Shown: positions 1,947 to 24,352 of the stretch, one piece after another | Layout of the letters: each line of letters opens with the position of its first letter | Position numbering within the stretch: the first letter of the stretch is position 1 | NCBI RefSeq assembly: GCF_001457595.1 | Contig: NZ_LN831039.1 | Location: forward strand, 2,100,001 to 2,132,000 | Source of the DNA: Mycolicibacterium smegmatis | GTDB taxonomy: Bacteria > Actinomycetota > Actinomycetes > Mycobacteriales > Mycobacteriaceae | Length of the DNA stretch: 32,000 nucleotides | Direction of reading: 5' to 3' | Made by a program: the position numbers and the translations under genes | The notes under the pieces: model-generated | The model's database searches: none | Told to the model about the DNA's origin: nothing | The model's input: only the letters and a program-made list of their open reading frames with translations

Positions 1947-3374
1947 TCAGGACTTGTCGTCCCCGGCGCCCTCGGTGCCGCTGTCGCCCTCTTGCGGCGG
2001 GTCGTTCTTCTGCAGGTCGGCGATCGCCTGGTCGATGGCGTCGTCGATCCCGCTCGTGTCGCCGCCGATCATGCGGTCGATGAACCCGGCCGGCTCGTCG
2101 AGATCGGACGCGCTGGGCAGCAGGTCCGGGTGCTGCCACACGCTGTCACGCGCGTCGGCGCCGACGGCCTCGGTCAGCCGCTCCCACAGCACGGCGGCCT
2201 CGCGCATCTTGCGGGGACGCAGTTCCAGCCCGACGAGCGTGGCGAAGGTCTGCTCGGCCGGTCCGCCGGTGGCGCGCCGGCGACGCATGGTCTCGGCCAT
2301 CGCCGACGTCCCGGGAATGCGCTCACCCAGCGCGCCGGAGACGACGGTCTGCACCCAGCCCTCGACGAGCGCCAGCAGCGTCTCGAGGCGTTCGAGCGCG
2401 GCCTCCTGCTCCGGGGTGGCCTTGGGTTCGAAGATGCCCTGGTTGAGCAGCTGCTCCATCTCCGACGGGTCGCTCAGCGACGCCGGGTTGAAGCCGCGTG
2501 CGAAGTCCTCGATGCCGGACATGTCGACCTTCATGCCTTTGGCGAAGGCCTCGACCGCACCCAGCAGCTGGCTCGACAGCCACGGGACGTGGCTGAACAG
2601 GCGGTGGTGTGCGGCCTCGCGCGCCGCGAGGAACGTCAGGATCTCGCTGCGGGGACGCTCGAGTCCCTCGGCGAACGCCTCGATGGCCTCCGGCAGCAGC
2701 GCCGCGACGCCCTTGGGGCCCAACGGAAGCCCGATGTCGGTGGAGGTCAGCACCTCTCGCGAGAGCTTGCCCAGCGCCTGACCCAGCTGTGAGCCGAACG
2801 CCATGCCGCCCATCTGCGACATCATCGCCAGCAGCGGGCCCGCCATGGCCTTGGCCTCTTCGGGCAGCGCCGCGGTCCACATCGTCGACACCTGCTCGGC
2901 GACCGGGTCGCACAACCGCTTCCAGGTCTCCATGGTGTTGTCCAGCCAATCGCTGGGCGTCCAGGCCACGGTGCGGGTGGTCCCGGCGGGCAGCGGGGTC
3001 ACACCGTCCAGCCACGTCTCGGCGAGCCGGACGGCGTCGGCCACCGCACCCGCGGTCTTCTCGGGCACCGGTGCGACGAACCCGATCGAGCTGTTGGCGA
3101 GTTGGCGGGCCAGGTCGTAGTTGACGGGGCCGGACTGTTTGCCGCCGGCCATCGCACTGCCGGCTCCGCTGAACATCTCACCGAGCTTGGTGAAGATCTG
3201 CCCGAGGTCGCCCATGTCGAAGCCGGCTCCGCCCATGCCCAAGCCGAACGGGTCCGACCCGGGGTTGCCGGAGCCGGAACCGGAGTCCGGGTCCTTCTTG
3301 TTCTTGTCTCGGTCCGGGTCGTCCCCGGCGGAGAAGCCGAAGGGCAGGTCAGCCATACCTGCAACCGTACTCAT
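1947..3374 (-). CDS. DUF2342 / zinc-dependent metalloprotease-like protein (Rv3195-like)
   Basis: 475-aa ORF. It has an acidic Gly-rich N-terminus and a conserved core (...FLAAREAAHHRLFSHVPWLSSQLLGAVEAFAKG...) that I recognise as the actinobacterial DUF2342 family. Assignment is from memory of the family, not from a search. Confidence 0.7.
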   Translation of the reverse strand: MSTVAGMADLPFGFSAGDDPDRDKNKKDPDSGSGSGNPGSDPFGLGMGGAGFDMGDLGQIFTKLGEMFSGAGSAMAGGKQSGPVNYDLARQLANSSIGFVAPVPEKTAGAVADAVRLAETWLDGVTPLPAGTTRTVAWTPSDWLDNTMETWKRLCDPVAEQVSTMWTAALPEEAKAMAGPLLAMMSQMGGMAFGSQLGQALGKLSREVLTSTDIGLPLGPKGVAALLPEAIEAFAEGLERPRSEILTFLAAREAAHHRLFSHVPWLSSQLLGAVEAFAKGMKVDMSGIEDFARGFNPASLSDPSEMEQLLNQGIFEPKATPEQEAALERLETLLALVEGWVQTVVSGALGERIPGTSAMAETMRRRRATGGPAEQTFATLVGLELRPRKMREAAVLWERLTEAVGADARDSVWQHPDLLPSASDLDEPAGFIDRMIGGDTSGIDDAIDQAIADLQKNDPPQEGDSGTEGAGDDKS

Positions 3375-4597: not shown

Positions 4598-7500
4598 GTG
4601 GGTATGCGGCCGACGGCAAGGATGCCGAAGCTGACGCGACGTAGTCGGGTCTTGATTGCTTTCGCGCTGGTGGCGGTGTTGCTGTTGCTGCTCGGGCCGC
4701 GGCTGATCGACACCTACGTCGACTGGCTGTGGTTCGGCGAACTCGGCTACCGCTCGGTGTTCACCACGGTGCTGGCCACCCGCCTGATCGTGTTCGTGGT
4801 CGTGGCGCTGGCGATCGGAGCCATCGTGTTCGCCGGTCTGGCACTGGCGTACCGGACCCGGCCGGTGTTCGTGCCGACCGCCGGCCCCAACGACCCGGTG
4901 GCGCGCTACCGCACGACGGTGATGGCGCGCCTGCGGCTGTTCGGTATCGGCGTCCCGGTGTTCATCGGGCTGCTGGCAGGCATCGTCGCGCAGAGCTACT
5001 GGGTGAAGATCCAGTTGTTCCTGCACGGCGGCGATTTCGGTATCACCGACCCCGAATTCGGCAAGGACCTCGGGTTCTACGCGTTCGATCTGCCGTTCTA
5101 CCGTCTGGTGCTGACGTACCTGTTCGTGGCGACGTTCCTGGCGTTCGTCGCGAACCTGTTGGGGCACTACCTTTTCGGCGGTATCCGTCTGACCGGGCGG
5201 GTCGGCGCGCTCAGCCGCGCCGCGCGCATCCAGTTGATCAGCCTCGCGGGCACGCTCATCGTGCTCAAGGCGTTCGCGTACTGGCTGGACCGCTACGAAC
5301 TGCTCAGCAACGATCGCTCGGCCAAGCCGTTCACGGGCGCGGGCTACACCGACATCAACGCCGTACTGCCGGCCAAGCTGATCATGCTCGCGATCGCGGT
5401 GATCTGCGCCGTGGCCGTGTTCTCCGCACTCGTGCTGCGGGACTTGCGCATTCCGGCCATCGGCGTGGCGTTGCTGCTGCTCAGCTCGCTGGTGGTGGGC
5501 GCGGGTTGGCCGCTGATCGTCGAGCAGTTCAGCGTCAAGCCCAACGCCGCGCAGAAGGAAGCCGAGTACATCAGCCGCAGTATCGAGGCGACCCGGCACG
5601 CCTACGGGCTCACCGATGAGACGGTGACCTACCGCAACTACGAGAACACCGGCCAGACCACCGCGGCTCAGGTCGCCGCCGACCGGGCGACCACGTCGAA
5701 CATCCGACTGCTCGACCCCACGATCGTCAGCCCCGCGTTCACCCAGTTCCAGCAGGGCAAGAACTTCTACTACTTCCCGGATCAGCTGTCCATCGACCGC
5801 TACATCGGCCCGGACGGCAACCTGCGCGATTACGTGGTGGCCGCGCGTGAACTCAACCCGGACCGGTTGATCGACAACCAGCGCGACTGGATCAACCGCC
5901 ACACCGTGTACACCCACGGCAACGGGTTCATCGCCTCACCGGCCAACACCGTGCGCGGTGTCGCCAACGACCCCAACCAGAACGGTGGTTACCCCGAGTT
6001 CCTCGCCAGCGTGGTCGGCGCGAACGGCAGCGTGATCTCGCCCGGACCGGCCCCGCTGGACCAGCCGCGCATCTACTTCGGCCCGGTCATCTCGAACACG
6101 CCCGCGGACTACGCGATCGTCGGCAAGACCGGTGACACCGACCGCGAGTACGACTACGAGACCAACACCGAGACCAAGAACTACACCTACGGCGGCAAGG
6201 GCGGTGTGCCGATCGGCAACTGGCTCAACCGCAGCGTGTTCGCCGCGAAGTTCGCCGAGCGGAACTTCCTGTTCTCCAACGTGATCGGCGAGAACAGCAA
6301 GATCCTGTTCAATCGCGACCCCGCCGAGCGCGTCGAGGCCGTCGCGCCGTGGCTGACCACAGACACCAGCGTGTATCCGGCCATCGTCAACAAGCGAATG
6401 GTGTGGATCGTCGACGGCTACACCACGCTGGACAACTACCCGTACTCGGAGTTGACGACGCTGTCGAGCGCGACCGCCGACTCCAACGAGGTGGCCGTCA
6501 ACCGGTTGGCGCCGGACAAGAAGGTGTCCTACATCCGCAACTCGGTGAAGGCCACCGTCGACGCCTACGACGGCACGGTCACGCTGTACGCGCAGGACGA
6601 GAACGATCCCGTGCTCAAGGCGTGGATGGACGTGTTCCCCGGAACGGTGAAGCCCAAAGCCGACATCACCCCGGAACTGCAGGCGCACCTGCGTTACCCC
6701 GAGGACCTGTTCAAGGTGCAGCGGGCCCTGCTCGCCAAGTACCACGTGGACAACCCCGTGACGTTCTTCTCGGCGCAGGACTTCTGGGACGTGCCGCTGG
6801 ATCCGAACCCGACGGCCAGCAGCTTCCAGCCGCCGTACTACATCGTCGCGAAAGACCTTGTGAAGAACGACAACTCGGCGTCGTTCCAGCTGACCAGTGC
6901 GCTGAACCGCTTCCAGCGCGACTTCCTGGCGGCCTATGTCAGTGCGAGCTCGGACCCCGAGACCTACGGCAAGCTCACGGTGCTGACCATCCCCGGTCAG
7001 GTCAACGGTCCCAAGCTGGCGTTCAACGCGATCAGTACCGACACCGCGGTCAGCCAGGACCTGGGTGTGATCGGTCGTGACAACCAGAACCGCATCCGCT
7101 GGGGCAACCTGCTCACGCTGCCGGTGGCCGACGGTGGCCTGCTCTACGTCGCACCGGTTTACGCCTCGCCGGGGTCCAGCGACGCCGCGTCGTCGTACCC
7201 GCGCCTCATCCGCGTGGCGATGCTGTACAACGACCGCGTCGGTTACGGTCCGACGGTCAGCGACGCCCTGACCGAACTGTTCGGTCCGGGCGCCGGTGCC
7301 ACCGCCACCGATGTCGCACCGGCAGAGGGTAGGCCGGCGCAGTCCACACCGAACGGGCAGCAGCCTGCCGCGTCACCGCCGCCTGCCGCCAATGCCGACG
7401 GCCGTCCGGCGCAGGCTCCGCCGCCTCCGTCGGCGGCAACGCCGACCGGGCCCGTGCAGATCTCGCAGGCCAAGGCCGAAGCGCTGCAGGACCTGGAGTC

Positions 7501-7609
7501 GGCACTCACGGCCGCGCAGGAGGCCCAGCGCAGCGGTGACTTCGCCGAGTACGGTCAGGCGTTGCAGCGTCTGAACGACGCGATGAAGAAGTACGACTCC
7601 GCGAAGTAG
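4598..7609 (+). CDS. UPF0182 family large polytopic membrane protein (Rv3193c-like)
   Basis: 1003-aa ORF. The N-terminus [22 protein letters not shown]...[22 protein letters not shown] and several TM segments are followed by a large soluble domain, all characteristic of UPF0182. The C-terminal ~110 aa are Pro/Ala-rich low complexity followed by a helix. Confidence 0.85.
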
Positions 7610-7624: not shown

Positions 7625-7674
7625 GACACAAACCTGCCCTTTTCCACGCGAAAAGCGGCAGGTTTGTGTCTTTT
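7625..7674 (+). terminator. rho-independent terminator after the UPF0182 gene
   Basis: The 14-bp stem gacacaaacctgcc (7625-7638) pairs with ggcaggtttgtgtc (7657-7670) and is followed by tttt (7671-7674). The loop contains a small hairpin (cttttc...gaaaag). A 16-bp palindrome tcttctcgcgagaaga (7611-7626) lies just upstream. Confidence 0.7.
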
Positions 7675-7783
7675 CGCCCCTCAAAACGGGTTCGCCCGTC
7701 TCGGATATTGGTGCGCCATCGGGGCCCTCCGGTGGGTGAGAATTGACCGATACTCACTGACGGGCGGATTGGGGGAGTCGCTG

Positions 7784-8311
7784 ATGGCAGTGACGATCTC
7801 GCAGGTGCTCGCCAGCCGCCCTGCGCAACTGGCAGCAGCCGCCGCCGAGGTGGGCGCGGCGGCGAATGACCTCGGCAACCAGATCGCCCGTGAGCGCTTG
7901 CAGCTGACCAGGTTGGCTTCGGACTGGCGCGGCAGTGCGTCCGACACCGCACAGACACACGCCAACGAGATGTTCGGCGATCAGGAGCTCTACCGCGACC
8001 GGCTCACGTCCCTGCAGACGGCGATGGCTTCCGGTGGCGCAACGCTCGACGGCATCCGCACCTGGTTGTCGCAGCTGGTCTCGAGTCCGGAGGCGGACCT
8101 GTTCGACATCTCCGACGACGGCCGTGTCGCCCTGGGCTGGCGGCTGAAATTGCTTGTCGCGGCCTATCCCGTGCTGGCGATGAAATGGGGGATGCGGCGC
8201 CTGGCGCTGCAGACCGCCATCCAGACCGTATTGGCCGAATTCGACGCGGCGGACAAGGCGACGGCCGACAAGATGAACCGGATCCAGCAGGGGCTCGTGG
8301 GACATGGGTGA
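7784..8311 (+). CDS. WXG-motif protein (WXG100/EspA-like N-terminal helical hairpin with an ~80-aa C-terminal extension); putative type VII secretion substrate
   Basis: The ATG at 7784 is preceded by gggggag (7771-7777). The 175-aa helical N-terminus has W-R-G at residues 48-50 (nt 7925-7933: ...LTRLASDWRGSASDTAQ...), at the position expected for the WXG turn. Its stop overlaps the next start (ATGGGTGA). Confidence 0.6.
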   Translation: MAVTISQVLASRPAQLAAAAAEVGAAANDLGNQIARERLQLTRLASDWRGSASDTAQTHANEMFGDQELYRDRLTSLQTAMASGGATLDGIRTWLSQLVSSPEADLFDISDDGRVALGWRLKLLVAAYPVLAMKWGMRRLALQTAIQTVLAEFDAADKATADKMNRIQQGLVGHG

Positions 8312-9479
8312 CCCGACTCTCGACGTCGACGAGCAGACCATGCGCGACACCGCGTCGGTGTTCGACGAAACGGGCCGCGGTGTCAGCGGCAATCAGGCCG
8401 GACCGGCCATTTCCGGTGCGGCCGGGGCGATGCCCGCACTGGCGGTCGGCGCGGCGTGCGGGACAGTCGGGTTCGCCCTCACCGAGCAGGCGAAGCAGCT
8501 GGGGAGTGATGTGACGGTGTACGCGCAGAAGCTGCGGGTGGCCGCCGACCGCTACGAGCGCGGTGATGAGGAGGCGGCCGAACGGATCGATTTCGCCGGG
8601 ACAGCAGAGCTGCCCGACGCCGGCGAGCATCCCCCGGTGAGTGATTACGAGCAGGCGCTGCGTGATGCCGGGCTCCTCACCGGCCCGGTGGTACCCGGAT
8701 CCAGATACGCCCAGTGGCTTGAGAATGCGTCCAAGAACGGCGTGGCGCCGCAGACCATCGTCGACATCGCTCGCACACACAACATCACGCCGCAATCGTT
8801 CGACGTGCTCAACGGTCTGCAGGAGGTCAAGGACGAAGACGGCAAATCGTTCTTCATCCTGCCGTCCGGCACCAGCAAGGAAGACGCGAAGAAAGCGGTG
8901 GTGATGACCTACATCCTCAACGCCGGAACCGACTACGAAGCCGCCGAGGCCGGACGTGACGGAGTATTGGGCACCGCAGATGATGTCCAGAACGATTTCG
9001 AGGAAACGCCCTACTCGGCCGCCGAGGTGCAGCGCATCATCGATCGGCAGAACGCGAACTCCTGGAGTTACGACCAGATTTTCGACAAGGGCGGCGGGGG
9101 ATCATTGGCGACGACACCCAACGGCATGCTGATGGGGCTGGGAGGGCCGGTGATGGACACGATCGGTGTCCACGGCGGGACGACGTACGGTGACGTGTTC
9201 GTGGTCAACATCGACGGGTCCGAGGATCCGGCAGAGCAGCTGACAACGATCATCGAATCAGGCTCCAACTGGTACATGCGCGACGACGGTCAGTTGGTCC
9301 AGGGCCGCCTCGACCTGGATCGTCTGTTGCATCACGAGGAGCGTCATTCCCAGCAGTGGGCGCAGAAGGGATTCGTCCGGATGGCAAGGGATTACGGGCT
9401 GGGCGCGCTCATCGAAAAGCGGACGGGTGTGAATCCGCTGGAACGCGACGCCGGCTTGTCGGACGGGGGTTACGCGTGA
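8304..9479 (+). CDS. two-domain protein: EspC-like/T7SS-substrate N-terminus with a YxxxD motif plus a C-terminal ~290-aa domain containing HExxH (putative secreted metallopeptidase-like effector)
   Basis: 391 aa. The N-terminal ~95 aa (MGDPTLDVDEQTMRDTASVFDETG...LRVAADRYERGDEEAAERI) have Y84-E-R-G-D88 (nt 8553-8567) at the end of helix 2. The C-terminal part has HHEERH (res 343-348, nt 9330-9347) followed by SQQW, with Glu371 lying 23 residues after the second His. The gene overlaps both neighbours. Confidence 0.6.
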   Translation: MGDPTLDVDEQTMRDTASVFDETGRGVSGNQAGPAISGAAGAMPALAVGAACGTVGFALTEQAKQLGSDVTVYAQKLRVAADRYERGDEEAAERIDFAGTAELPDAGEHPPVSDYEQALRDAGLLTGPVVPGSRYAQWLENASKNGVAPQTIVDIARTHNITPQSFDVLNGLQEVKDEDGKSFFILPSGTSKEDAKKAVVMTYILNAGTDYEAAEAGRDGVLGTADDVQNDFEETPYSAAEVQRIIDRQNANSWSYDQIFDKGGGGSLATTPNGMLMGLGGPVMDTIGVHGGTTYGDVFVVNIDGSEDPAEQLTTIIESGSNWYMRDDGQLVQGRLDLDRLLHHEERHSQQWAQKGFVRMARDYGLGALIEKRTGVNPLERDAGLSDGGYA

Positions 9480-10021
9480 GGTTCTGGCTGGCCGTGTTGT
9501 CGGCACTGGTGCTGGCCGTGGGCCTTGTGGCGTGTGATACCGATGACGACGGATGGAATCCGGAAGCGCAGTTCGCCCCGGTGAAGCGTCCGGCGTTCGG
9601 TGCCCGGGAGACCGACGGCAAGCTGGTGATCTGGGTGCCGCCGGGTTGTGTCGGGGTGTGGTCGGTGAAGCTCATGTTCGGGCTGAGTGGGCCGGATCTG
9701 GTGTTGACCCCCACGGTCGGCACGGTGTCGTTTGACCGGTTCACCGTGGGCGGTCCGTACCCTCCGGGGATGGCCGTGACGAAAGCTCCTCCGCCCGATT
9801 TCGATTGGCGCACAGTCGATACGCTGCACCTCGATGTCGGGACTACTCCGGGAGGTTTTCCATCGACCTCGGTCGTGGCCGACATCGTCGAGAGTTCGGG
9901 TGATCACCCGGACAATACGTTCTTCTTCGACGGGGTCGGTTGGCTCGATCCCGAAGGGGTCGCTGCGCGGATAGGCAACGACTTCGAGGGCGTGTGCACC
10001 CCGCAGGAGACGCGAGGATAA
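9476..10021 (+). CDS. lipoprotein (candidate cognate immunity/partner protein)
   Basis: The GTG at 9476 overlaps the upstream stop (GTGA). The signal peptide VRFWLAVLSALVLAVGLVA|C carries a lipobox L-V-A-C, with Cys20 at nt 9533-9535. The mature ~160 aa show no recognisable family. Confidence 0.65.
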   Translation: MRFWLAVLSALVLAVGLVACDTDDDGWNPEAQFAPVKRPAFGARETDGKLVIWVPPGCVGVWSVKLMFGLSGPDLVLTPTVGTVSFDRFTVGGPYPPGMAVTKAPPPDFDWRTVDTLHLDVGTTPGGFPSTSVVADIVESSGDHPDNTFFFDGVGWLDPEGVAARIGNDFEGVCTPQETRG

Positions 10022-10059: not shown

Positions 10060-13000
10060 GTGCACTATCGCTTGCTCGGACCACTGCAGGTGGTGCATTC
10101 CGGCACGCCGGTCGACATCGGTGCCCCGAAACAACGGGCAGTCCTGGCGATGCTGTTGCTGGCACAGGGCCGCGTCGTGTCGGTCGATCGTCTGATTGAC
10201 GCAGTGTGGGGTGATGATCCACCGGCGAGCGCCACCGCCAGCCTGCAGGCCTACATCTCCAATCTGCGACGTGCGCTGCGTGACGGGTCCGACACCGCGC
10301 AGGTGGCGTCGCCGATCGTGCGTCAGCCGCCCGGGTACTACCTCGACGCACCCGCCGACGCCGTGGATCTGGCGCAGTTCACCGCAGGCTGTCAGCAGGC
10401 CGCGCAGGCTGTCGAGGAACAGCGCTGGGTCGATGCGCTGACCGCCGCCGATGAGGCGCTCGCGCTGTGGCGCGGTCCGTTCCTCGATGACCTGCGTGAC
10501 GAGCAGTGGGTCCACGAGGACGCCGCCCGCGCCGGCGAGTTGCGCAGCGAGTGCGTGGACCACCGCATCACCGCGCTGCTGGCCCTCGGGCGGGTTTCGA
10601 CGGCGCTGGCCGCCGTCACGCAACTGCGTTCGGCCGAACCGCTTTCCGACCGTGCCTGCTGGTTGCACATGCTGACGCTGTATCGCGCGGGCCGCGCCCC
10701 GGAGGCCCTTGACGCCTACACCCGCCATGCGCAGATGCTCGACAACGTACTGGGACTGGTCCCGGGCGCCGAACTGCGCGAGTTGCAGACCGCGATCCTG
10801 CGCCAGGCGCCCGAACTCGCCGCGTGGCCCAGGTCCCCGGAGTGGACCGGTGCCGAGGAGGTGCACACCCCCGCCCCGCCGCACCCGCCCGTGCCCGAAC
10901 CGGGCGCCCAGCGTGGTTTGCTCATCGGGCGCAAGCGTGAACTCGCCGTCGCCACCGACCTTCTGGCCGACGTGGCGGCGGGGGAGACGCGGTGGCTGGT
11001 GCTCTCGGGGCCACCAGGTATCGGCAAGACCAGGCTCGCCGAGGAGATCACCGACGGGTGCGACGCCGAGGTCGTGTGGGTGTCCTGCCCGGACGAACGG
11101 TCGACGCCACCGTGGTGGCCCATGCGACAACTCGTGCGCGCGTTGGGCGCCGACGCCGACGAGGTGCTGGAGGTGCCGCCCCACGCCGACCCTGACACCG
11201 CGCGTTTCCAGGTGTACGAGCGTGTGCAGGCCCTGCTGGAATCGACGGGCCGGCCCGCGGTCGTGGTGATCGATGATGTGCAATGGGCGGATTCGACCTC
11301 GGCCAGTTGCCTCGCCTACATCGCCGGCGCACTGCGGGACCATCCGGTCGCGATCGTGCTCACCGTACGCGACGTCGACCACACCGCCGAGGTCGCGCGT
11401 CTGCTGGCGACCGTCGCACGTGGCGACGGCAACCGTCACCTGGCGCTCTCGTCGTTGTCGACCGATGATGTTGCGGCACTGGCGAATCAGATTTCCGAGG
11501 ACGTCGTCGACCACGCCGAGGCACAGATACTGGCCGAACGCACCGGTGGCAACCCGTTCTTCGTATCCGAATACGCGCGCCTGCCCCGTGCCGAACGCGG
11601 TGAGATCCCCGTGGCCGTGAAATCGGTGCTCGACCGGCGCCTCGCCGGGCTCGATCCGGGGGTGCTCGCGGTACTGCGGGTCGCCGCGGTGATCGGCGAC
11701 CCGATCGACGCCGACGTGGTTCCCGTGCTGGCGCGGGTCGCCAAGATCGACTTCGACACGCTCGCAGACCATCTGGATGCCGCGGCCGACGAGCGCATCG
11801 TGGTCAACGCGCACACCGGCGATGGCTACACGTTCGCCCATGGACTGTTGCGTGACCACCTGATGGCCGGCCTGCCCGCGCTGCGTCGGCAGCGCCTGCA
11901 TGCCCAGGTGGCCGAGGTGTTGGCGGGCAACCCGTCCGACGACGCGATCACCCGCCGGGCCCAGCATCTGGTTGCGGCCCAACCGTTGGTCGACCCCGTC
12001 GAGGTGGTCGCCGCGTGCCGTCTGGCCGCGGAGGCGGCCACCCAACGGTGGAGTTCGGACATCGCGGCGGGATGGTGGCAGGCCGCGCTCGACGCCTACG
12101 ACCGGGTGCCGGTCGCGTCGCGCAGTGAAACCGAGCGCGACGCGCTGACTGTGGCGATGCTGGAAGCACATTCACGCGCCGGGCGGGGCCGCACGGTGCT
12201 GGGTTACGTCGAACGTCACCTCACCGAGGCATTGCGCAATGAACGCGCCGACACCGCGGGTCTGGTCGCCAGCGTGCTGTTGCGGTCCAGTGGTGGATGG
12301 CCGTGGCTGGCCCCCGGCGATGATCCGGGTGCACTGCTGACGTTGTTGCAGCGCGCCGCGGAGATGGCTGCCGAGCACCCGGCGGCCGGAGCGCGTGTGT
12401 TGGCAGCACTGGGCGTCGGGTGCTGCTATCACCCCGATCCCGGGGTGGCCGCAGGCCACCTCGACCGCGCCGAGCGCCTCGCCGAACGCACCGAGGATCC
12501 CGATGTGCTCGCCGACGTGTTGATGGGCCGGCTCATCACCTATTCGGGTGTCAACGAACGCAGTCACGAGATCTTCGAATGGGTCGCGCGGCTTGAGGTG
12601 TTGCAGCACAGCAGGTCCCGTGAGGATTCGGTGATCGCCCACTCGGTGGCGACGATGTCGGCAATGCTGCTGGCCGACACCGAGCTGACCGAGCGCCACC
12701 TCAGGGCCGGGGTGGTGGGCAGCGAAGAGCTGCAGCTACCGGTTCTGCGTGCCCAATTGCGGTGGATGGAAGCGGTATTGGCGACGTGGCGCGGTGACTT
12801 CGACGAGGCGCAGCGCCACCACTCGATCGCGGCGCACGTGCACGAGCAGACCGAACTCTACGGCGCGGGAAGCGGTCTGCTGGCCGAGGTGACCCTGCTG
12901 CGTGAGATCGGCGGCCCCGTCCCGGCCGGGTTCGGGGTCACACCTGCCGATGTCGAGCGAGGCGGGCAGGGGATGGAGGCCATGGTGCATGTCGCCCTGC

Positions 13001-13470
13001 TGACCATCGAGCGCGGCCCACGCGCCGCGGCCGCCACGCGATTGGACAACTGGGTCAACACCGACCGCGGACAGATCTGGACCAACCTCGGCGAGGCGGC
13101 CTGGATGGCCCATCTGGCGGTCGACTACGGGCTGGGCGAGTACGCCGAGCCGCTGCTGGCGGTCCTGCAGCCGTTCACCGATCGCATCGCGGTGATCGGA
13201 CAGGTGGGGCACGCCGGGCCGGTGGCGCTCGCCACCGCCAGACTGCACGCGCTGCGCGGTGATCGCGCCCGGGCACTCGAAGATCTGGCCAAAGCCGAGG
13301 ACGTCGCGCGTCGTACCGGTGCCAGGCCCACACTGCTGCGCTGTGCGCTGCTGGCCTGCGAGCTCGCCGAGGACGGGGCGGCCCGGCGCCAAGCCGCCGC
13401 CAAGCTTGCCGCCGACGCCGAGGCGATGGGCATGCACGGGATCGCCGCGCAGGCCCGTGCATTGTCCTGA
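10060..13470 (+). CDS. AfsR/SARP-family regulator with STAND architecture: OmpR-type winged helix plus BTAD, then a P-loop NTPase, then a TPR-like C-terminus
   Basis: 1136 aa. The N-terminus YRLLGPLQV...GAPKQRAVLAMLLL...VSVDRLIDAVWGDDPP...LQAYISNLRRAL is SARP-type. The BTAD signature is ...LALWRGPFLDDL...LYRAGRAPEALDAY. The Walker A is LVLSGPPGIGKTRLA, and the tail is long and helical-repeat. GTG start. Confidence 0.85.
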   Translation: MHYRLLGPLQVVHSGTPVDIGAPKQRAVLAMLLLAQGRVVSVDRLIDAVWGDDPPASATASLQAYISNLRRALRDGSDTAQVASPIVRQPPGYYLDAPADAVDLAQFTAGCQQAAQAVEEQRWVDALTAADEALALWRGPFLDDLRDEQWVHEDAARAGELRSECVDHRITALLALGRVSTALAAVTQLRSAEPLSDRACWLHMLTLYRAGRAPEALDAYTRHAQMLDNVLGLVPGAELRELQTAILRQAPELAAWPRSPEWTGAEEVHTPAPPHPPVPEPGAQRGLLIGRKRELAVATDLLADVAAGETRWLVLSGPPGIGKTRLAEEITDGCDAEVVWVSCPDERSTPPWWPMRQLVRALGADADEVLEVPPHADPDTARFQVYERVQALLESTGRPAVVVIDDVQWADSTSASCLAYIAGALRDHPVAIVLTVRDVDHTAEVARLLATVARGDGNRHLALSSLSTDDVAALANQISEDVVDHAEAQILAERTGGNPFFVSEYARLPRAERGEIPVAVKSVLDRRLAGLDPGVLAVLRVAAVIGDPIDADVVPVLARVAKIDFDTLADHLDAAADERIVVNAHTGDGYTFAHGLLRDHLMAGLPALRRQRLHAQVAEVLAGNPSDDAITRRAQHLVAAQPLVDPVEVVAACRLAAEAATQRWSSDIAAGWWQAALDAYDRVPVASRSETERDALTVAMLEAHSRAGRGRTVLGYVERHLTEALRNERADTAGLVASVLLRSSGGWPWLAPGDDPGALLTLLQRAAEMAAEHPAAGARVLAALGVGCCYHPDPGVAAGHLDRAERLAERTEDPDVLADVLMGRLITYSGVNERSHEIFEWVARLEVLQHSRSREDSVIAHSVATMSAMLLADTELTERHLRAGVVGSEELQLPVLRAQLRWMEAVLATWRGDFDEAQRHHSIAAHVHEQTELYGAGSGLLAEVTLLREIGGPVPAGFGVTPADVERGGQGMEAMVHVALLTIERGPRAAAATRLDNWVNTDRGQIWTNLGEAAWMAHLAVDYGLGEYAEPLLAVLQPFTDRIAVIGQVGHAGPVALATARLHALRGDRARALEDLAKAEDVARRTGARPTLLRCALLACELAEDGAARRQAAAKLAADAEAMGMHGIAAQARALS

Positions 13471-14993: not shown

Positions 14994-15078
14994 ACCCGGC
15001 GTGGTTCGCCGCAAAAACCGCCGTTGACCAGACGATTTGGAACTGCGCGCAGGGCCCGGGTAACCTCGTATTCACCAA

Positions 15079-15152
15079 CGCGGGGTGGAGCAGCTCGGTA
15101 GCTCGCTGGGCTCATAACCCAGAGGTCGCAGGTTCGAATCCTGTCCCCGCTA
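15079..15152 (+). tRNA. metU: initiator tRNA-fMet (anticodon CAT)
   Basis: Hand-folded cloverleaf. Acceptor is cgcgggg/ccccgct with a C1:U72 mismatch. D-stem is gagc/gctc. The anticodon stem ctggg/cccag has three G:C pairs next to the loop ctCATaa. T-arm is gcagg-ttcgaat-cctgt. The 5' half closely resembles E. coli tRNAfMet. No encoded CCA. Confidence 0.9.
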
Positions 15153-15155
15153 CTA
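15109..15155 (+). repeat. 47-bp direct repeat, copy 1 (attL-like core; 3' part of tRNA-fMet plus 3 nt)
   Basis: ggctcataacccagaggtcgcaggttcgaatcctgtccccgctacta is identical to 25654-25700. Confidence 0.9.
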
Positions 15156-15178
15156 AGTCAGTGGTCTTCGACCACTGG

Positions 15179-15218
15179 AAATGGCCGCCAGTGCAAACTG
15201 GCGGCCATTTTGTTTGTG
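15179..15218 (+). terminator. rho-independent terminator downstream of the tRNA (island-side)
   Basis: The 13-bp perfect stem aaatggccgccag (15179-15191) pairs with ctggcggccattt (15198-15210) around the loop tgcaaa, and is followed by tgtttgt. It is preceded by a smaller hairpin cagtggtc-ttc-gaccactg (15159-15177). Confidence 0.7.
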
Positions 15219-15244
15219 AACGTTGTGAACGGATTTGGGAACGA
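15213..15244 (+). promoter_or_regulatory. tandem TTGTGAACG-type repeats; possible recombinase arm-type sites (P' arm)
   Basis: The sequence is tttgtgaacgttgtgaacggatttgggaacga. The 23-mer gttgtgaacggatttgGgaacga (15222-15244) recurs with one mismatch at 25518-25540. Confidence 0.4.
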
Positions 15245-15591
15245 AGCAAGCTCATTGCGCGGCTTGCATGGCCGTCTCGGATCTATGCCATTGGTCGGTG
15301 CGGTGCAAACAAGCTCTCGTGGGACTTCGATGGCTAGGTCATTCGACCGGGTGGTAATAGCCCCAGGTGTTTCATCCCGGGAGATCGAGTTGCCGTTCTG
15401 GGTACAGCGTTCGCGATAGGAAAGTCGAACTGCACGTGACGAGAACCGCCCCGGTCTTGGCGTTTGCCGTCCGCGGCCAGAGCGGTCCGGCAGAAGCCAT
15501 CTCGGTCGCGCGACAACTGCACCTGTCGCAGTTGAGGACGCGAGGCTTCATGGTCGGCGAGCAATGTTGCTTCTCAAGTTAGATGCCCTTT

Positions 15592-15627
15592 TCTCACTCA
15601 AATGTCCAATTGCACATTTGAGTGAGA
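15592..15627. repeat. 36-bp near-perfect AT-rich palindrome
   Basis: tctcactcaaatgt-ccaattgc-acatttgagtgaga has 14-bp perfect arms and a partly self-complementary spacer (caattg). It is intergenic and much more AT-rich than its surroundings. Confidence 0.8.
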
Positions 15628-15711
15628 ACTGCGTCAGTGCTCACCGCCATCGATACGGCTGGCAAGCTGATCATTAGCCCATTGGTGGCGACCGTACGGT
15701 GGGCAGCCGGC

Positions 15712-16722
15712 CTATCGGGCGGGAACCGAGGCGCCCGCTTGAAGGTCCGTGATTCGGGTGTCGGCGATGGTCTCGGCAAAGGAAGTGCCGAACAACGCTG
15801 CGGGAGTGTGGAATCCGGGTTGATGTTCACCGCGGAGAACTCGTCCTGCGGCCTCGGCGGCGGCCAGGGGGGTGAAGGTGTAGCCGTTCACCGTGTCGAG
15901 GACCGAGCGCGCCACCGCGCCGTCCGCTCCGGTGACTTCCACGGCGGCGTGGTAGCGGTCGGCCGTCCGCTGCTCGGCTGAGGGGCCTTCGGGAAGGGTA
16001 GCTATGTCACCTTGCGGGAAGGCATGTCCAGAGACGTACACGAAGGTATCGATGTTGGGGATGCCCGTGGCCCGCCAGATAGTCATTAGGTCGGGGAGTG
16101 TTGTCGCAGAGCATGATGTCGGTCCGCACCCAAAGTCGAAGTCGCGTCGGTCGTCGGGGTTGCGGGGCACCAGTTGACCGTCGAGTCGTTGTAGGCAGTC
16201 GGTAGTGAGATTTTCGGTCGCGCTGAGGGCAGAGCCCCGTGACATTGATCCGGCGACATGCAGCGCGATGTGCACGTGCTGGGGGTTGTTGACAAGCTGT
16301 GCGGCGTGGCCGGCCAGGCAGCCGAGCATGGCCACGCTGCCACCACTTCCGGGAAGCAACAAGACGCCGGCGTCGCGGGCCGTCGAATCGAGTTTCTCAG
16401 CGAGGTGGTAGCTGTCGAGTTCGGCTGCAACGTCGAGGTAGTGGGTGTGTGCGCGGATCGCAGCTTCCATGAGTGGTTTAGCGGTTCGCATGAACGGCCC
16501 GGCGCAGTTGAGGACGACGGTGATGTCTGACAGCGCAGTCTCCACGGCAGCGTCGTCATCGAGGTCGAACGTTCGATGGTCGGCCCCGAGTTCATGGGCC
16601 AGTGCTGCCAGGCGGGTGCGGTTTCGCCCGCCCAGGACGAGATCGAGTCCGGCTGCTGCGGCGTGTTCGGCGGCCATTCGCCCGGTATAGCCGGTGGCTC
16701 CGTAGATCATCAGGGTGGGCAT
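15712..16722 (-). CDS. saccharopine dehydrogenase-like NAD(P)-binding protein (trans-acting enoyl reductase-like family)
   Basis: The internal ATG at 16722 (MPTLMIYGATGYTGRMAAEHAAAAGLDLVLGGRN...) gives a 336-aa protein with an N-terminal Rossmann GxxGxxG. The upstream 156 codons of the 492-aa track ORF are Arg/Pro-rich and overlap the VOC gene out of frame. Confidence 0.75.
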   Translation of the reverse strand: MPTLMIYGATGYTGRMAAEHAAAAGLDLVLGGRNRTRLAALAHELGADHRTFDLDDDAAVETALSDITVVLNCAGPFMRTAKPLMEAAIRAHTHYLDVAAELDSYHLAEKLDSTARDAGVLLLPGSGGSVAMLGCLAGHAAQLVNNPQHVHIALHVAGSMSRGSALSATENLTTDCLQRLDGQLVPRNPDDRRDFDFGCGPTSCSATTLPDLMTIWRATGIPNIDTFVYVSGHAFPQGDIATLPEGPSAEQRTADRYHAAVEVTGADGAVARSVLDTVNGYTFTPLAAAEAAGRVLRGEHQPGFHTPAALFGTSFAETIADTRITDLQAGASVPAR

Positions 16723-16724
16723 GG

Positions 16725-17120
16725 TCAGTGCTGCCAACTCTTGTAGACGAATTCGAGGCTGTAGCCGTCGGGGTCGAGGACATTGGCGGCGTAGTAACGG
16801 GGGTCGTAGTGCAGCCGTGCCCCGGGCGCGCCGTTGTCGGTGGCTCCGGCGGCGATGGCGGCGCGGTAGGTGCCGTCGACCTGGGCGGTGCTGTCGGCCA
16901 CGAAGCCGACATGGGTGGACCGGCCCTCTGCGACACCGGCGCGTAGCCAGAAGATCATCCGGCCGTGGGCGCCGAAACCTTTGAGGTCGGGATGGCCTGG
17001 CGGGCCGTCGTTTCCGTCGTAGTCCAGGCGGGTGGTGATGCCCAGCGGCGCCAGGGTGGCGGTGTAGAAGGCGATGGAGCGATCGAGATCGCTCACCGAC
17101 AGGAAGATGTGGTCCAGCAT
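16725..17120 (-). CDS. VOC-family (glyoxalase/bleomycin-resistance/dioxygenase fold) protein
   Basis: 131 aa: MLDHIFLSVSDLDRSIAFYTATLAPLGI...HVGFVADS...GAPGARLHYDPRYYAANVLDPDGYSLEFV. RBS ggagaag lies upstream. The stop is 2 nt from the next start. Confidence 0.8.
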   Translation of the reverse strand: MLDHIFLSVSDLDRSIAFYTATLAPLGITTRLDYDGNDGPPGHPDLKGFGAHGRMIFWLRAGVAEGRSTHVGFVADSTAQVDGTYRAAIAAGATDNGAPGARLHYDPRYYAANVLDPDGYSLEFVYKSWQH

Positions 17121-17141
17121 GGTGGTGGGGCTCTTCTCCGG

Positions 17142-17885
17142 TTAGATGGTGAAGCCGCCGGCGACTTCGATGTTCTGGGCGTTGATCCACCGGTTGTCAT
17201 CAGCCAGCAGGCTGGCGATGGTGTCGGCGACGTCGTCGGGTTCACCGACACGTCCGAGGGCGGTCTGACCGGCGAGCAGGGTTTCGAACTCGTCGTTGAG
17301 GCCGCCGCCGAGTTCGGTGCGGATGGCGCCCGGGGATATGGAATTGGCTCTGATCCGGCGGTCGCCGAATTCCTTGGCCATGTAGCGGGTGAGGACTTCC
17401 AGTCCACCCTTGAAGGAGGCGTACGGGGCGACCCCAGCGGTGGCGACCCGGGTGGTCGCGCTGGTCAGGTTCACGATGTGCCCACCGTCCGCCATCAAAG
17501 GCAGCAGTGCCTGGGTGAGGAAGAACGGTCCTTTGAGGTGCACGTTGAACAGCCCGTCGAATTGGGCTTCGGTCACGGTGGCGATGGGGTTGTAGAGGCC
17601 GTAGCCGGCGTTGTTGACCAGGTAGTCGAAATTTGTTTGGCCCCAACGCTCGTCCAGTGCGGCACCGACGGTTGTGGCGAATGCCGGGAATGACGCGGTG
17701 TTGGCGACGTCGAGTTCGAGCGCGACCGCCGTGGCGCCGGCGGTGGTCATGCGGTCGACGACACCGGCGGCGGAGTCGGGATTGCTGTTGTAGGTCAGGA
17801 TGACGCCCATGCCGCGGCGGGCGCAGGCCAGTGCGGTGGCGGCGCCGATGCCTCGGCTACCTCCCGTGACGATGGCGATGGTCAT
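17142..17885 (-). CDS. SDR-family oxidoreductase
   Basis: From the ATG at 17885, MTIAIVTGGSRGIGAATA provides the TGxxxGxG motif. Also present are NNAG and YASFKGGLEVL (YxxxK). RBS gagagagg. Confidence 0.85.
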   Translation of the reverse strand: MTIAIVTGGSRGIGAATALACARRGMGVILTYNSNPDSAAGVVDRMTTAGATAVALELDVANTASFPAFATTVGAALDERWGQTNFDYLVNNAGYGLYNPIATVTEAQFDGLFNVHLKGPFFLTQALLPLMADGGHIVNLTSATTRVATAGVAPYASFKGGLEVLTRYMAKEFGDRRIRANSISPGAIRTELGGGLNDEFETLLAGQTALGRVGEPDDVADTIASLLADDNRWINAQNIEVAGGFTI

Positions 17886-17958
17886 CGATGTCTGCCTCTC
17901 TCGAAGTGGTGGTGACATCGAGTGAACCGGCCTAGCCACGCCGGGGGAAGGGCACGTC

Positions 17959-17983
17959 TTCCTGGGTGCGCTGCACCCAGGAA
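17959..17983. promoter_or_regulatory. 11-bp perfect inverted repeat between the MmyB-like regulator gene and the SDR operon (hairpin terminator or operator)
   Basis: ttcctgggtgc-gct-gcacccaggaa lies 17 nt downstream of the regulator stop and ~75 nt upstream of the SDR start. Confidence 0.45.
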
Positions 17984-17999
17984 CGCACCGCCGACGCGT

Positions 18000-18851
18000 T
18001 TAGAGACGTTCGCGGTGGCGGGTGGCCTCCAGTGTCCCCAGAAGTGCCAGGGCGTCGGCGCTGGGCGATTCGGGTGCTGCCGTGGCCACCGTGAGCTGCT
18101 GGCCAGGCGAGCTACGGACATCGAAGGTCTGGTAGCTCAGCGTCAGCATCCCGACCTCGGGATGGCGGATGGTCTTGCGCGTCGCGGTGAGGCCGGCGAC
18201 GGCGTGGTCGTCCCACAATCCTCGGAAGCCTGCGCTGCCTCGGCGCAGGCGGGTGATCAGGTCGGTGACTTCGGGGTGGGTCGGGGTGAAGCCTTCGGCC
18301 AAGCGCAGCGCGCTGACCGACGCCTTGGATACCTCGTCCCAATTGACGTAGAACTCGCGCGCGGCAGGATCGAGGAACAGCGCGGCAAGCACATTGGGGT
18401 CCCGCTGCTGCAGGGGCGTGATCAGGGCGGTGGCTGCCGGGTTGGCGATCAGCACGCGAAACGCCGGATTGGTCACGTAGGCCGCCGCGTGAGGGAACGC
18501 CTCCATCGTCTGCAGCAGTTCCGGACTCACCGCGTCACCGCTGCGCGCCGCGGTCGGGGAAAGCTTGGCTAGGCGGAAGGCGTGCTCCCGCGCGTCGGGG
18601 GCTAGCCGCAGGGCGTGACAGATCGCATCGACGACCTGAGCCGACGGGCTGCGTTCGCGGCCCTGCTCCAGCCGCGCGTAATAGTCCGCGCTCACACCGG
18701 ACAACACGGCAACTTCCTCGCGCCGCAGACCGACCACGCGCCTACCCGCAACTGATGGCAGGCCCACGTCGTGGGTGCTGATCCGTGACCGCTGCGCGCG
18801 CAGGAAGTCGCCGAACGGATTCTCAGATGCCGGTGCGTCGTCACGGGCCAC
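18000..18851 (-). CDS. XRE-type helix-turn-helix regulator with an MmyB-like C-terminal domain
   Basis: ...FGDFLRAQRSRISTHDVGLPSVAGRRVVGLRREEVAVLSGVSADYYARLEQGRERSPSAQVVDAICHALRL... is the typical MmyB-family HTH. The GTG at 18851 overlaps the rrf2-like stop by 11 nt. The start is uncertain. Confidence 0.7.
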   Translation of the reverse strand: MARDDAPASENPFGDFLRAQRSRISTHDVGLPSVAGRRVVGLRREEVAVLSGVSADYYARLEQGRERSPSAQVVDAICHALRLAPDAREHAFRLAKLSPTAARSGDAVSPELLQTMEAFPHAAAYVTNPAFRVLIANPAATALITPLQQRDPNVLAALFLDPAAREFYVNWDEVSKASVSALRLAEGFTPTHPEVTDLITRLRRGSAGFRGLWDDHAVAGLTATRKTIRHPEVGMLTLSYQTFDVRSSPGQQLTVATAAPESPSADALALLGTLEATRHRERL

Positions 18852-19305
18852 GAAGGGCCTCCACGGGATTGCCGGCCTCGAACTCGGCCATGGTGTCACG
18901 TAGGACGTCGGCGATGGACGTCGTGGCCAGCGACTTGCGCAGCGCAGCGGTGGCGCGTGCATACACCCGAGACAGCACGGGTTGAATGCCGTATCCCACA
19001 TAGCATTCCGCGTCCGGGGGTGAAGCGTGCATGCCGAAGACCTCACCGTCGCCGACGGCGTTGTAGACGTCGAGCAGCGTGATCTTCGACGCAGCGCGGG
19101 TCAACGCCCAGCCGCCGTTGCGGCTGGACTCGACCAGGCCAGCGACCCGCAGGTCGCTCAAGCACCGGCGGATGACCACCGGGTTGGTGTTCACGCTGGT
19201 CGCGATGCGCTGCGAGGTACCGACCTCCTTGTCGGTGCCGCGACGATCGAAGGCAATCCACGTCAACACGTGCACCGCCAGACTCATCTTGCTGTTCGCA
19301 CTCAT
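18841..19305 (-). CDS. Rrf2-family transcriptional regulator
   Basis: The ATG at 19305 is preceded by gggagggg. MSANSKMSLAVHVLTWIAF...TSQRIATSVNTNPVVIRRCLSDLRVAGLVESSRNGGWALTR is an Rrf2 winged-HTH. No obvious three-Cys Fe-S ligand cluster is present. Confidence 0.8.
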   Translation of the reverse strand: MSANSKMSLAVHVLTWIAFDRRGTDKEVGTSQRIATSVNTNPVVIRRCLSDLRVAGLVESSRNGGWALTRAASKITLLDVYNAVGDGEVFGMHASPPDAECYVGYGIQPVLSRVYARATAALRKSLATTSIADVLRDTMAEFEAGNPVEALRGP

Positions 19306-19350
19306 GCTGCACCCCTCCCGACCTTCGCCCGTGATGCCGACGACGTCGAC

Positions 19351-19405
19351 TTGACTGTAACTAACCCTGTTACGTATGTTACCTGTAACAGGACCTGTTA
19401 CAAAC
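19351..19405 (+). promoter_or_regulatory. promoter/operator cassette A: TTGACT-N18-TATGTT with two GTAAC-N7-GTTAC inverted repeats
   Basis: ttgact (19351-56), gtaactaaccctgttac (19357-73), tatgtt (19375-80), then tgtaacaggacctgttaca, a 9-1-9 perfect palindrome within 19381-19405. It lies in the divergent region beside the rrf2-like gene. Confidence 0.55.
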
Positions 19406-19465
19406 ACCATGCTGGTCGATCAGAGATGCGTCTCGGCACCAACCGACGGGTGAGAGGGCAAAGCA

Positions 19466-19642
19466 TGTTTAAGGCAATCACTTTCGACACCTTGGCAGGA
19501 TCCGAATTGCTGCGGGTTCAGCCGTGCAGCCCCCGGTATAGCCGGCCCCACGAGGTGCGACTCGACATCGAATACATCGGTGTGAACAGGCCCGGCATGC
19601 ACTTTCGCTCCGGCATCTACCCAATCGAACAATGGAATTGAC
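19466..19642 (+). pseudogene. 58-codon N-terminal remnant of an MDR-type (quinone oxidoreductase/zinc-ADH superfamily) gene
   Basis: MFKAITFDTLAGSELLRVQPCSPRYSRPHEVRLDIEYIGVNRPGMHFRSGIYPIEQWN* aligns with the N-terminus of the full-length MDR gene at 24353..25402 (..VQFTRLGGPEVLEMV..PGHVRVEIRTIGLNRFEALFRRDHY). RBS gagaggg. It stops 4 nt before the LLM gene start. Confidence 0.6.
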
Positions 19643-19645
19643 ATC

Positions 19646-20551
19646 GTGAAACTCGGACTGTTCGGCATTAACGTCGGCGCAGGGACAACGCCACAACGAG
19701 CCCACTCGACCGCCGTCCTGGCAGAGGAGCTGGGACTGGAGTCGCTATGGGCGCTCGATCACGTCGTGATGCCCTCGGGATACGAAACCAAGTACCCTTA
19801 CCACGAATCCGGCAAGATGATGGGCGGCGCCGAAGAGGTCGACATCGCCGACCCCCTGACCTGGCTCACCTTCGCTGCCGCGGTGACCGACCGGATCAAG
19901 CTCGGCACTGGCGTCATCATTCTGCCGCAACGCAACCCGGTGGTATTGGCCAAGCAGGCGGCCTCACTCGACGTGCTCAGCGGCGGTCGCCTGCTGCTTG
20001 GGGTTGGGGTGGGGTGGCTGGCTGAAGAGTTCGCCGCTGTGGGCGTGCCGTGGGCCGACCGCGGCCGCCGACACGACGACTACATCGAGGCGATGCGCGC
20101 GCTGTGGCGTGACACCAAGGCCAGCGTGCACAACACCTACACCGATTTCGACAACGCGATCAGCCTGCCCCAACCCGCCGGCGGCGCCGTACCGATCGTC
20201 ATCGGCGGCCGCTCGAACCGATCCGCGCGCCGGGCAGCCGCGATCGGGGACGGCTACTTCCCCAGCATCACCGAGCCCGACCAACTGAGCCCACTGCTAG
20301 ACATCATGAACTCCGAAGCCCAACGGTTGCATCGCGATCCCACTGACATCGAGGTGACCGTGCCCTACCCCGGCGACCCTGCCGAACTCACCGCCGCCGC
20401 CCACGGTGACACTGCCGCGCTCGAACGCATTACGGCACTGCTGCAGGGATTCGCCGACAGCGGGGTGTCGCGAACACTGCTGGCCGGCGTGGCCGACGAG
20501 GCACTCCCGCCCTTGCTCAAGCACCTGGGCGACCGCGTCGATCTGAGCTGA
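19646..20551 (+). CDS. LLM-class (luciferase-like) F420-dependent oxidoreductase
   Basis: VKLGLFGINVGAG...LAEELGLESLWALDHVVMP...IKLGTGVIILPQRNPVVLAKQAASLDVLSGGRLLLGVGVGWLAEEF...PIVIGG is the typical LLM/F420 subgroup pattern. GTG start. Confidence 0.8.
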   Translation: MKLGLFGINVGAGTTPQRAHSTAVLAEELGLESLWALDHVVMPSGYETKYPYHESGKMMGGAEEVDIADPLTWLTFAAAVTDRIKLGTGVIILPQRNPVVLAKQAASLDVLSGGRLLLGVGVGWLAEEFAAVGVPWADRGRRHDDYIEAMRALWRDTKASVHNTYTDFDNAISLPQPAGGAVPIVIGGRSNRSARRAAAIGDGYFPSITEPDQLSPLLDIMNSEAQRLHRDPTDIEVTVPYPGDPAELTAAAHGDTAALERITALLQGFADSGVSRTLLAGVADEALPPLLKHLGDRVDLS

Positions 20552-20647
20552 TTGACCTGACGCCGCTGCTCACCCCGCAGCAACGCCCATATCCACGAGA
20601 CCCAGCAACGACCCCACCGCCATCCCTACACACCAAGGAGAACACCC

Positions 20648-23397: not shown

Positions 23398-23406
23398 ATC
23401 AGTGTG
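23398..23406. repeat. 9-bp target-site duplication (right) of IS copy 2
   Basis: atcagtgtg is identical to 21901-21909. Confidence 0.85.
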
Positions 23407-24292: not shown

Positions 24293-24352
24293 GCTGCGTC
24301 GGGACAGCCCGGTCCAGCGACGCGAGCACCGACTTGATTGGAACCAAAGATC

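Follow-up and report, generated by a model that had tools for sequence, protein, structure and literature searches.

In a 32,000-nucleotide stretch of the Mycolicibacterium smegmatis genome (contig NZ_LN831039.1, positions 2,100,001 to 2,132,000; hereafter the window), an open reading frame (ORF) of 391 amino acids (aa) at 8304..9479 (+) encodes what we propose to be a toxin exported by a type VII secretion system (T7SS). Its C-terminal domain, roughly 285 aa long, carries an HExxH motif and defines a family that is unnamed and uncharacterised. Our reading, to which we assign a probability of about 0.6, is that the protein is a new zincin-like metal-dependent hydrolase, that it is the payload of a three-gene T7SS cassette, and that it acts in the cell envelope. 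This reading draws on conservation of the motif, shuffling of the domain among different N-termini, linkage to a small lipoprotein gene, and the order of elements in predicted structures. An identical protein is present in M. smegmatis genomes including that of mc2 155 (CP000480.1, 2,040,821-2,041,996).

The initial annotation had singled out HEERH at aa 344-348 (nucleotides 9333-9347), followed by SQQ, and the ORF bears out both positions; the motif lies 43 aa from the C-terminus, close to the 45 or so that had been estimated. The toxin has only six His residues, three of them in HHEERH, and from its own composition 0.006 HExxH motifs would be expected by chance. Homologues keep the motif, whose loss from them the annotation would have counted against it: HExxH is found in 196 of the 233 family sequences collected in two homology searches, and the remainder are fragments or frameshifted, apart from two with HKExH. 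When 145 distinct cores were aligned, H344, H348 and Q351 were present in every one and E345 in 144. The first His of the HH pair, H343, varies across the family, as does Glu346. Eight residues past His348, Gly356 may mark a kink or turn in the helix.

A second block of conservation lies at the extreme C-terminus. E380 and A383 are found in all 141 cores that cover them, position 387 is Asp in 137 and Glu in 2 of 141, and G388 (141 of 142 non-gap cores), G389 and Y390 (both 142 of 142) follow. The family signature can be written L-L-x-H-E-x-x-H-x-x-Q-W-A-x-x-G ... E-x-x-A-G-L-x-D-G-G-Y, the second half standing at the C-terminus. His348 and Glu380 are 20 to 56 residues apart, most often 24, 28 or 31-33. 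Ahead of the motif, G292 and G296 are invariant in the segment GGTTYGDVFVV. Glu371 had been put forward as the third metal ligand, and it does lie 23 residues past His348, just as GGTTYGDVFVV does begin at aa 291, but the stretch that holds it is variable and rich in indels, and the family alignments show no conservation at this position, so it has to be given up for this role. Judged from the alignment, the candidates for the third ligand would be E380 or D387, the invariant acidic residues past HExxH. The E-x-x-A context of E380 resembles the gluzincin "Glu helix" motif, and G-L-x-D-G-G-Y around D387 recalls the aspzincin GTxDxxYG motif, the latter as a lead only. In a divergent subclade (P0183-P0212), where the motif reads HER[VI]H, a Cys is conserved on either side of the C-terminal motif, one of them five residues ahead of E380 and the other just past Y390. 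This pair could form a disulfide that staples the C-terminal motif, which would be consistent with an extracytoplasmic enzyme.

We modeled aa 106-391 with AlphaFold2 (AF2) from a 50-sequence alignment and obtained a structure with a predicted local distance difference test score (pLDDT) of 89.5 and a predicted template modeling score of 0.90. In this model the first 150 residues of the domain are mostly helical, and the last 130 form two hairpins followed by a strand, a helix (DPAEQLTTIIESG), two further strands and then, directly, the HExxH helix. In domain numbering, DSSP assigned strands at 188-190 and 193-195, a helix at 204-214, strands at 216-220 and 226-232, and a helix from 233 onward that contains HExxH. 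A model of the core alone showed the same element order at a pLDDT of 78, and in both models HExxH occupies the second turn of its helix. The modeled order matches that of zincin catalytic cores, the comparison being one of order alone.

Covariation among the 145 cores (effective number about 97) gave signals that are weak and confounded by phylogeny. Position 347 was coupled to 382, with R accompanied by D or N and I, M or V accompanied by E, a pattern that also appears across separate clusters; N273 was coupled to E346 (N-E versus E-R) and Y364 to N377. The R347-D382 and N273-E346 couplings suggest that the ExxAG helix and the TTPNG hairpin may flank the motif helix. For all three couplings to be satisfied, a bend at G356 would be needed, giving a helix, Gly-turn, helix arrangement as in minigluzincins. 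In the models, the extreme C-terminus (D387, Y390) could also fold back toward the His pair.

The family is large. Using aa 100-391 as the query, we found 844 homologues in a 5.8-billion-protein database. When 1.84 billion cluster representatives were scanned exhaustively with HMMER, only 119 clusters (50% identity) were recovered, and none linked the family to a larger superfamily. Species-representative genomes contain 323 loci in Actinomycetota, from Mycobacterium, Mycolicibacterium, Mycobacteroides, Nocardia, Amycolatopsis, Actinoplanes, Mumia, Nocardioides and other genera; the locus comparisons reported here used the best 80 of these 323. The same C-terminal domain occurs behind at least six N-termini, namely EspC-like PF10824, EspA/EspE PF18879, DUF4226 PF10774, WXG100 PF06013, PF21725 and LXG, and stand-alone forms of about 270 aa also occur. 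No phage match was found for the family, and the sole plasmid match was in Georgenia. Existing annotations describe its members only as "ESX-1 secretion-associated protein" or "type VII secretion target".

In the window's own toxin the N-terminal domain is of the EspC-like type, with PF10824 covering aa 8-96 at 25.7 bits (cut-off 23.5), and the YxxxD motif noted in the initial annotation is indeed there, as YERGD at aa 84-88 (nucleotides 8553-8567). Directly upstream lies a WXG100-like gene whose stop codon overlaps the toxin start by 8 nucleotides and which gene callers predict as an identical 175-aa ORF. Its match to Pfam WXG100 (E 7.8e-6, 26.5 bits) is just under the cut-off of 27.3, and its match to TIGR03930 (E 9e-7) is slightly below the curated cut-off. 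The partner gene is kept upstream of the toxin in 13 of the 80 loci. As the regulator that follows the cassette is MSMEG_1963 in the literature, gene order indicates that the three cassette genes are probably MSMEG_1960, MSMEG_1961 and MSMEG_1962. MSMEG_1960 co-purified with MSMEG_1961 in an affinity purification-mass spectrometry study (PMC3963859), a result that applies to the partner and toxin through locus tags assigned here from gene order.

The third gene of the cassette encodes a lipoprotein, and its GTG start overlaps the toxin stop (GTGA). In 68 of the 80 loci, across genera, the gene that directly follows the toxin domain encodes a homologue of this lipoprotein, and in nearly all of these its start codon overlaps the toxin stop or is only a few bases away. 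Every homologue has a hydrophobic N-terminal segment followed by a Cys, two further Cys are invariant in the mature protein, and the family has no relative in Pfam or among PDB sequences. Because the lipoprotein tracks the C-terminal domain whatever the N-terminus, it behaves as a cognate immunity protein would. In seven loci, from several Mycobacterium and uncultured Actinomycetota, it is tandemly duplicated, with two domain copies per ORF of 325-336 aa (L014, L015, L017, L018, L028, L030 and L040). With an N-terminal T7SS domain, a shuffled payload and a linked lipoprotein gene, the locus has the build of a T7SS-type polymorphic toxin, and on this point the initial annotation is supported.

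We hypothesize that the WXG100-like partner and the helical N-terminus of the toxin, with its YxxxD motif, would form a composite export signal and that the toxin would leave the cell through an ESX system. H344 and H348 would then bind the metal, E345 would serve as the general base, the C-terminal motif would supply the third ligand through E380 or D387, and Q351, Y364 or Y390 may assist catalysis. The C-terminal domain would hydrolyze an envelope substrate, perhaps a peptide of the peptidoglycan or a protein of the envelope, and the membrane-anchored lipoprotein would protect sister cells by binding the toxin directly and blocking it. The toxin most likely acts outside the cytoplasmic membrane, because the protein conserved beside it is exported, lipid-anchored and has conserved cysteines, and because the divergent subclade places a Cys pair around the C-terminal motif. 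Metal binding, catalysis, substrate, secretion route and toxicity are the parts of this scheme that we infer.

We compared the domain with known metallopeptidase families by scanning Pfam member by member (25 and 35 family members, E≤10). Tox-MPTase4 (PF15640) was the sole recurrent match, in 4 of the 25 and 7 of the 35 with a best E of 0.0049. The two matches viewed in detail reached 15.1 and 12.8 bits against a gathering cut-off of 25 and covered profile positions 63-91 only, and the window's own toxin had no Tox-MPTase4 match. The likeness extends to setting, as Tox-MPTase4 is a zincin toxin domain of type VI secretion system and T7SS polymorphic toxins and is also joined to WXG/LXG T7SS domains. 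Profile searches of the PDB gave the M48 peptidase 3c37 as the best zincin, at an E of 0.88-0.89, which is not significant and limited to the motif. The aligned segment begins at the strand ahead of the helix, takes in HExxH and pairs a Gly and a Tyr of 3c37 with the nearly invariant G356 and the invariant Y364 of the toxin family. Foldseek retrieved neither 3c37 nor any minigluzincin, a 53-aa fragment of 3c37 used as the seed of a protein search gave no candidates for an M48 profile, and the fetched related loci contained no M48 gene.

The family of which the initial annotation was reminded, DUF4157 (PF13699), matched none of the 60 scanned members. Using a consensus sequence as seed, we retrieved 120 PF13699 proteins, all of which carried PF13699, and aligned 40 of them. 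Against these 40, hhalign gave our core alignment a probability of 16.6% over 21 columns around LLxHExxHxxQ. A greedy alignment to the DUF4157 subset with a C-terminal "E-R-E-A-[DE]" was collinear through all elements and paired that motif with E380-R-D-A, at a probability of 8.5%, and the two hhalign probabilities refer to 21-22 columns; in DUF4157 proteins, E-x-E-A lies about 25-50 residues past the second His of HExxH. When the full model was compared by Foldseek with BFVD, a database of predicted viral structures, the best matches were small phage proteins (E 0.11-0.27, probabilities 0.95 and 0.72, not significant), one of them annotated DUF4157. The two families share HExxHxxQ ... E, a hydrophobic LL before the first His and a strand-helix-strand before the motif helix, and DUF4157 too occurs in polymorphic toxins (PMC3482391). 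Unlike DUF4157, the present domain carries a further helical half of 150 aa and ends in a distinctive GLxDGGY, and the spacing from the Gly/Thr-rich strand to the motif is longer, as had been claimed (about 45 versus about 20 residues).

Of the proposed resemblance to DUF4157, what survives is the HExxHxxQ...ExxA signature and the weak phage match, and what falls away is any support from the PF13699 profile or from the 21 columns of the hhalign comparison. For DUF4157, Tox-MPTase4 and M48 alike, the likeness is one of signature and topology, and membership of any of the three is not supported. The Tox-MPTase4, M48 and BFVD matches and the greedy alignment are weak, but all of them point toward a zincin, as our main reading has it. 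The description "divergent or new zincin family" was fair wording, in that the domain resembles minimal zincins and its membership is unsupported by hidden Markov models, hhalign and Foldseek. The fold was also rightly called unrecognizable, with no match to the C-terminal domain in Pfam, NCBIfam or PHROGs, none in the PDB by single-sequence search, and none of significance by Foldseek.

Several results weigh against a zincin-like toxin. No family member rises above any Pfam or NCBIfam threshold for the C-terminal domain, and the matches to Tox-MPTase4, DUF4157 and M48 span the motif helix only. Foldseek against the PDB returned no significant match (best E 2.1 with the full-domain model and 0.63 with the core model), with aminopeptidase N chains appearing at E 1.4-3, a probability of 0.03 and a root-mean-square deviation of about 11 Å. 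In both AF2 models the HExxH helix is unbroken for 37 residues (aa 338-374), an arrangement that would set E380 far from both His unless the helix is kinked at G356. The two exceptions to HExxH conservation, P0059 and P0208, read HHKE[RL]H, with Lys replacing the presumed catalytic Glu, and may be inactive variants or sequencing errors. Finally, 12 of the 80 loci carry the domain alone (247-318 aa), lacking a T7SS N-terminal domain as well as any immunity homologue within 5 kb; these orphans keep HHEE[RW]H. In at least 8 of these 12 orphan loci (L024, L039, L045, L047, L049-L052, L055, L058, L066 and L071; about 5000-5830 in each) the domain lies directly downstream of a conserved 170-aa DUF5130 gene. 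Orphans without an export domain and an immunity gene would be tolerable if the enzyme is harmless in the cytoplasm, and for this reason they too point to an envelope site of action; the same 12 loci also fit a reading in which the protein is not a toxin.

Four other explanations have to be set against ours. The domain could be a true, highly divergent DUF4157 / PVC-metallopeptidase: a zincin of minimal build, lengthened by about 45 extra residues ahead of the HExxH helix and preceded by an added helical domain. This would account for the common signature (HExxHxxQ, then E-x-[DE]-A 20-56 residues on; signature in PMC3482391), for the collinearity of the greedy alignment over all elements, and for the DUF4157 phage protein and two other small phage proteins that head the BFVD matches. 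We regard it as unlikely, if a serious contender, in view of the 0 of 60 members that match PF13699 at E≤10, the low hhalign probabilities over so few columns, and BFVD E values short of significance. The enzyme might instead use HExxH on a non-peptide substrate, such as the arabinogalactan-peptidoglycan linker or a glycan, lipid or lipoprotein ester of the mycobacterial envelope. A conserved HExxH with an upstream beta sheet overwhelmingly denotes a peptidase, however, and the weak profile matches are to peptidase families only, which makes this a rather improbable alternative even though Foldseek gave the fold no peptidase match and the large, conserved helical half of the domain could bind a non-protein substrate. 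The sole characterized mycobacterial toxin of the same locus layout does target arabinogalactan (PMC13444075).

It is also improbable, in our estimation, that the protein has no part in interbacterial competition and is a secreted or housekeeping enzyme for own-wall remodeling, conjugation or host interaction, with the lipoprotein as its regulator, anchor or chaperone. Such a role would suit annotations that name only ESX-1 or type VII secretion association, the 12 loci that lack the export domain and the lipoprotein and, in most cases, adjoin the DUF5130 gene, the constant syntenic place that the cassette occupies downstream of UPF0182 in the M. smegmatis / M. fortuitum group, and the absence of the family from phages and near absence from plasmids. 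It would not explain why the domain turns up, by shuffling, behind at least six different N-terminal trafficking domains, why a lipoprotein gene with an overlapping start follows the domain and not the N-terminus across genera, or why some of the immunity genes are tandemly duplicated; together, these three features are hallmarks of polymorphic toxin-immunity pairs. The least probable explanation, and a very improbable one, gives HExxH a structural or vestigial role in a non-catalytic domain that would work, for instance, through binding or by disturbing the membrane. The unusually long predicted helix that holds the motif, the lack of a fold match and the two HKExH homologues would agree with it, but H, E, H and Q, along with E380, A383, D387 and Y390, stay invariant down to about 31% overall identity, which is the pattern of an active site and not of a scaffold. 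On balance we favor an envelope-acting, zincin-like T7SS payload, and the coordinates of its parts are collected in Table 1.

Table 1. Features of the toxin cassette and the adjoining regulator, in window coordinates.
Feature	Position	Strand	Basis or remark
WXG100-like small helical partner gene, 175 aa (probably MSMEG_1960)	7784..8311	+	W-R-G at aa 48-50, nucleotides 7925-7933
Helical T7SS-targeting domain, toxin aa 1-105	8304..8618	+	Pfam T7SS_ESX_EspC PF10824
C-terminal toxin domain, aa 106-391	8619..9479	+	Helical N-terminal half and beta/alpha core
T-T-P-N-G hairpin, aa 270-274	9111..9125	+	P272 and G274 invariant; N273 co-varies with E346
GGTTYGDVFVV, aa 291-301, two predicted short beta strands before the backing helix	9174..9206	+	DSSP of AF2 model
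H344-E-E-R-H348-S-Q-Q351, HExxHxxQ motif near the N-terminus of the long helix	9333..9356	+	Alignment of 145 cores and AF2 model
Gly356, 8 residues past His348	9369..9371	+	G356 in 142/145 cores
E380-R-D-A-G-L-S-D387-G-G-Y390, C-terminal motif	9441..9473	+	Core alignment
Candidate immunity lipoprotein gene, 181 aa (probably MSMEG_1962)	9476..10021	+	Signal peptide, lipobox Cys20 (nucleotides 9533-9535; …GLVAC)
SARP/BTAD-ATPase regulator, 1136 aa (MSMEG_1963, "EmbR-like")	10060-13470		Adjoins cassette

The genes around the cassette run in the order whiB7, an ABC1 kinase, a Zincin_2 protein, a Lon/PDZ protease, UPF0182, the 175-aa WXG100-like gene, the toxin, the 181-aa gene and the 1136-aa SARP regulator, and in the M. 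smegmatis / M. fortuitum group the cassette keeps a constant position after the UPF0182 gene. The UPF0182 gene has its stop codon at 7607-7609, and directly 3′ of it, at 7625-7676, comes a hairpin that is long and imperfect (GACACAAACCTGCC...GGCAGGTTTGTGTC), with TTTTCG behind it. The hairpin is outside the loop and stem limits of our terminator scan, and it is probably a terminator that divides the UPF0182 gene from the toxin operon. A sigma-70 promoter scan found no match for the cassette, and reading by eye upstream of 7784 revealed no GGAACCG, the -35 motif of SigM (ESX-4 regulon). The SARP regulator lies downstream of the cassette in the window and in the related locus L004 (6436-7623), and upstream of it in L010 (680-1876) and L012 (252-1448), so a regulatory link between the two is possible. 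The "EmbR-like" MSMEG_1963 has been tied to tryptanthrin resistance, and the reported R893C mutation has a residue number compatible with the 1136-aa length of the regulator (PMC7823563).

Farther out, the window contains genes with no direct part in the cassette. The Zincin_2 (PF10103) protein at 1947-3374 (-), 5 kb upstream, is unrelated and has no bearing on our finding, but it could be mistaken for the toxin. Downstream of a FAD-binding oxidase, gene content varies among M. smegmatis strains (L081/L084 versus L082), and the window has the L082 type of arrangement, unlike mc2 155; a Mutator-family transposase gene lies at 21943-23262 (-), within the region of about 15000-25000. At 25759-31622, a MimR-type regulator precedes a set of soluble di-iron monooxygenase genes (Phenol_Hydrox, reductase), an arrangement that resembles the M. 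smegmatis propane/acetone monooxygenase cluster.

If the toxin is an envelope-acting metallohydrolase, its substrate would indicate a vulnerable bond in the mycobacterial cell envelope, and the lipoprotein would represent a new class of inhibitor. A confident model without a PDB neighbor makes the domain a candidate for a new zincin fold, and a family that is widespread (323 loci) and present in mc2 155 is directly testable by genetics. A bolder version of our reading is possible though doubtful: that the domain is the founding member of a new clan of zincin-like proteins whose fold is absent from the PDB, that it is the first metallohydrolase payload of actinobacterial T7SS warfare, that its envelope target is specific to mycolata or actinobacteria, and that the lipoproteins form a new family of metalloenzyme inhibitors.

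T7SS polymorphic toxins with lipoprotein immunity, and zincin-type toxin domains generally, are already known (PMC3482391, PMC13444075). What is new is the present domain family, which falls below every family threshold and has no structural neighbor in the PDB. The nearest point of comparison is the EatA / TapA1-TapA2 / EatI system of Mycobacterium abscessus, whose ESX-4-secreted toxin, demonstrated in 2026, is the first proven antimycobacterial T7SS toxin (PMC13444075, bioRxiv 10.64898/2026.08.24.746431). Lipoprotein immunities mark envelope-acting payloads, of which 47%, about half, are without predicted function, and EatI is itself a lipoprotein that guards against the envelope-acting EatA (PMC13444075). 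Identity with GH183/EatA can be ruled out: the EatA payload is a GH183 endo-D-arabinanase, whereas the present payload is an HExxH domain without a Pfam match, and the immunity family here is unrelated to any PDB sequence. The present cassette also has one partner gene versus two in the EatA locus. The likeness lies in the layout, in which one or more WXG100-like helical partners are followed by a toxin with a helical N-terminal targeting domain and then by a small lipoprotein immunity gene.

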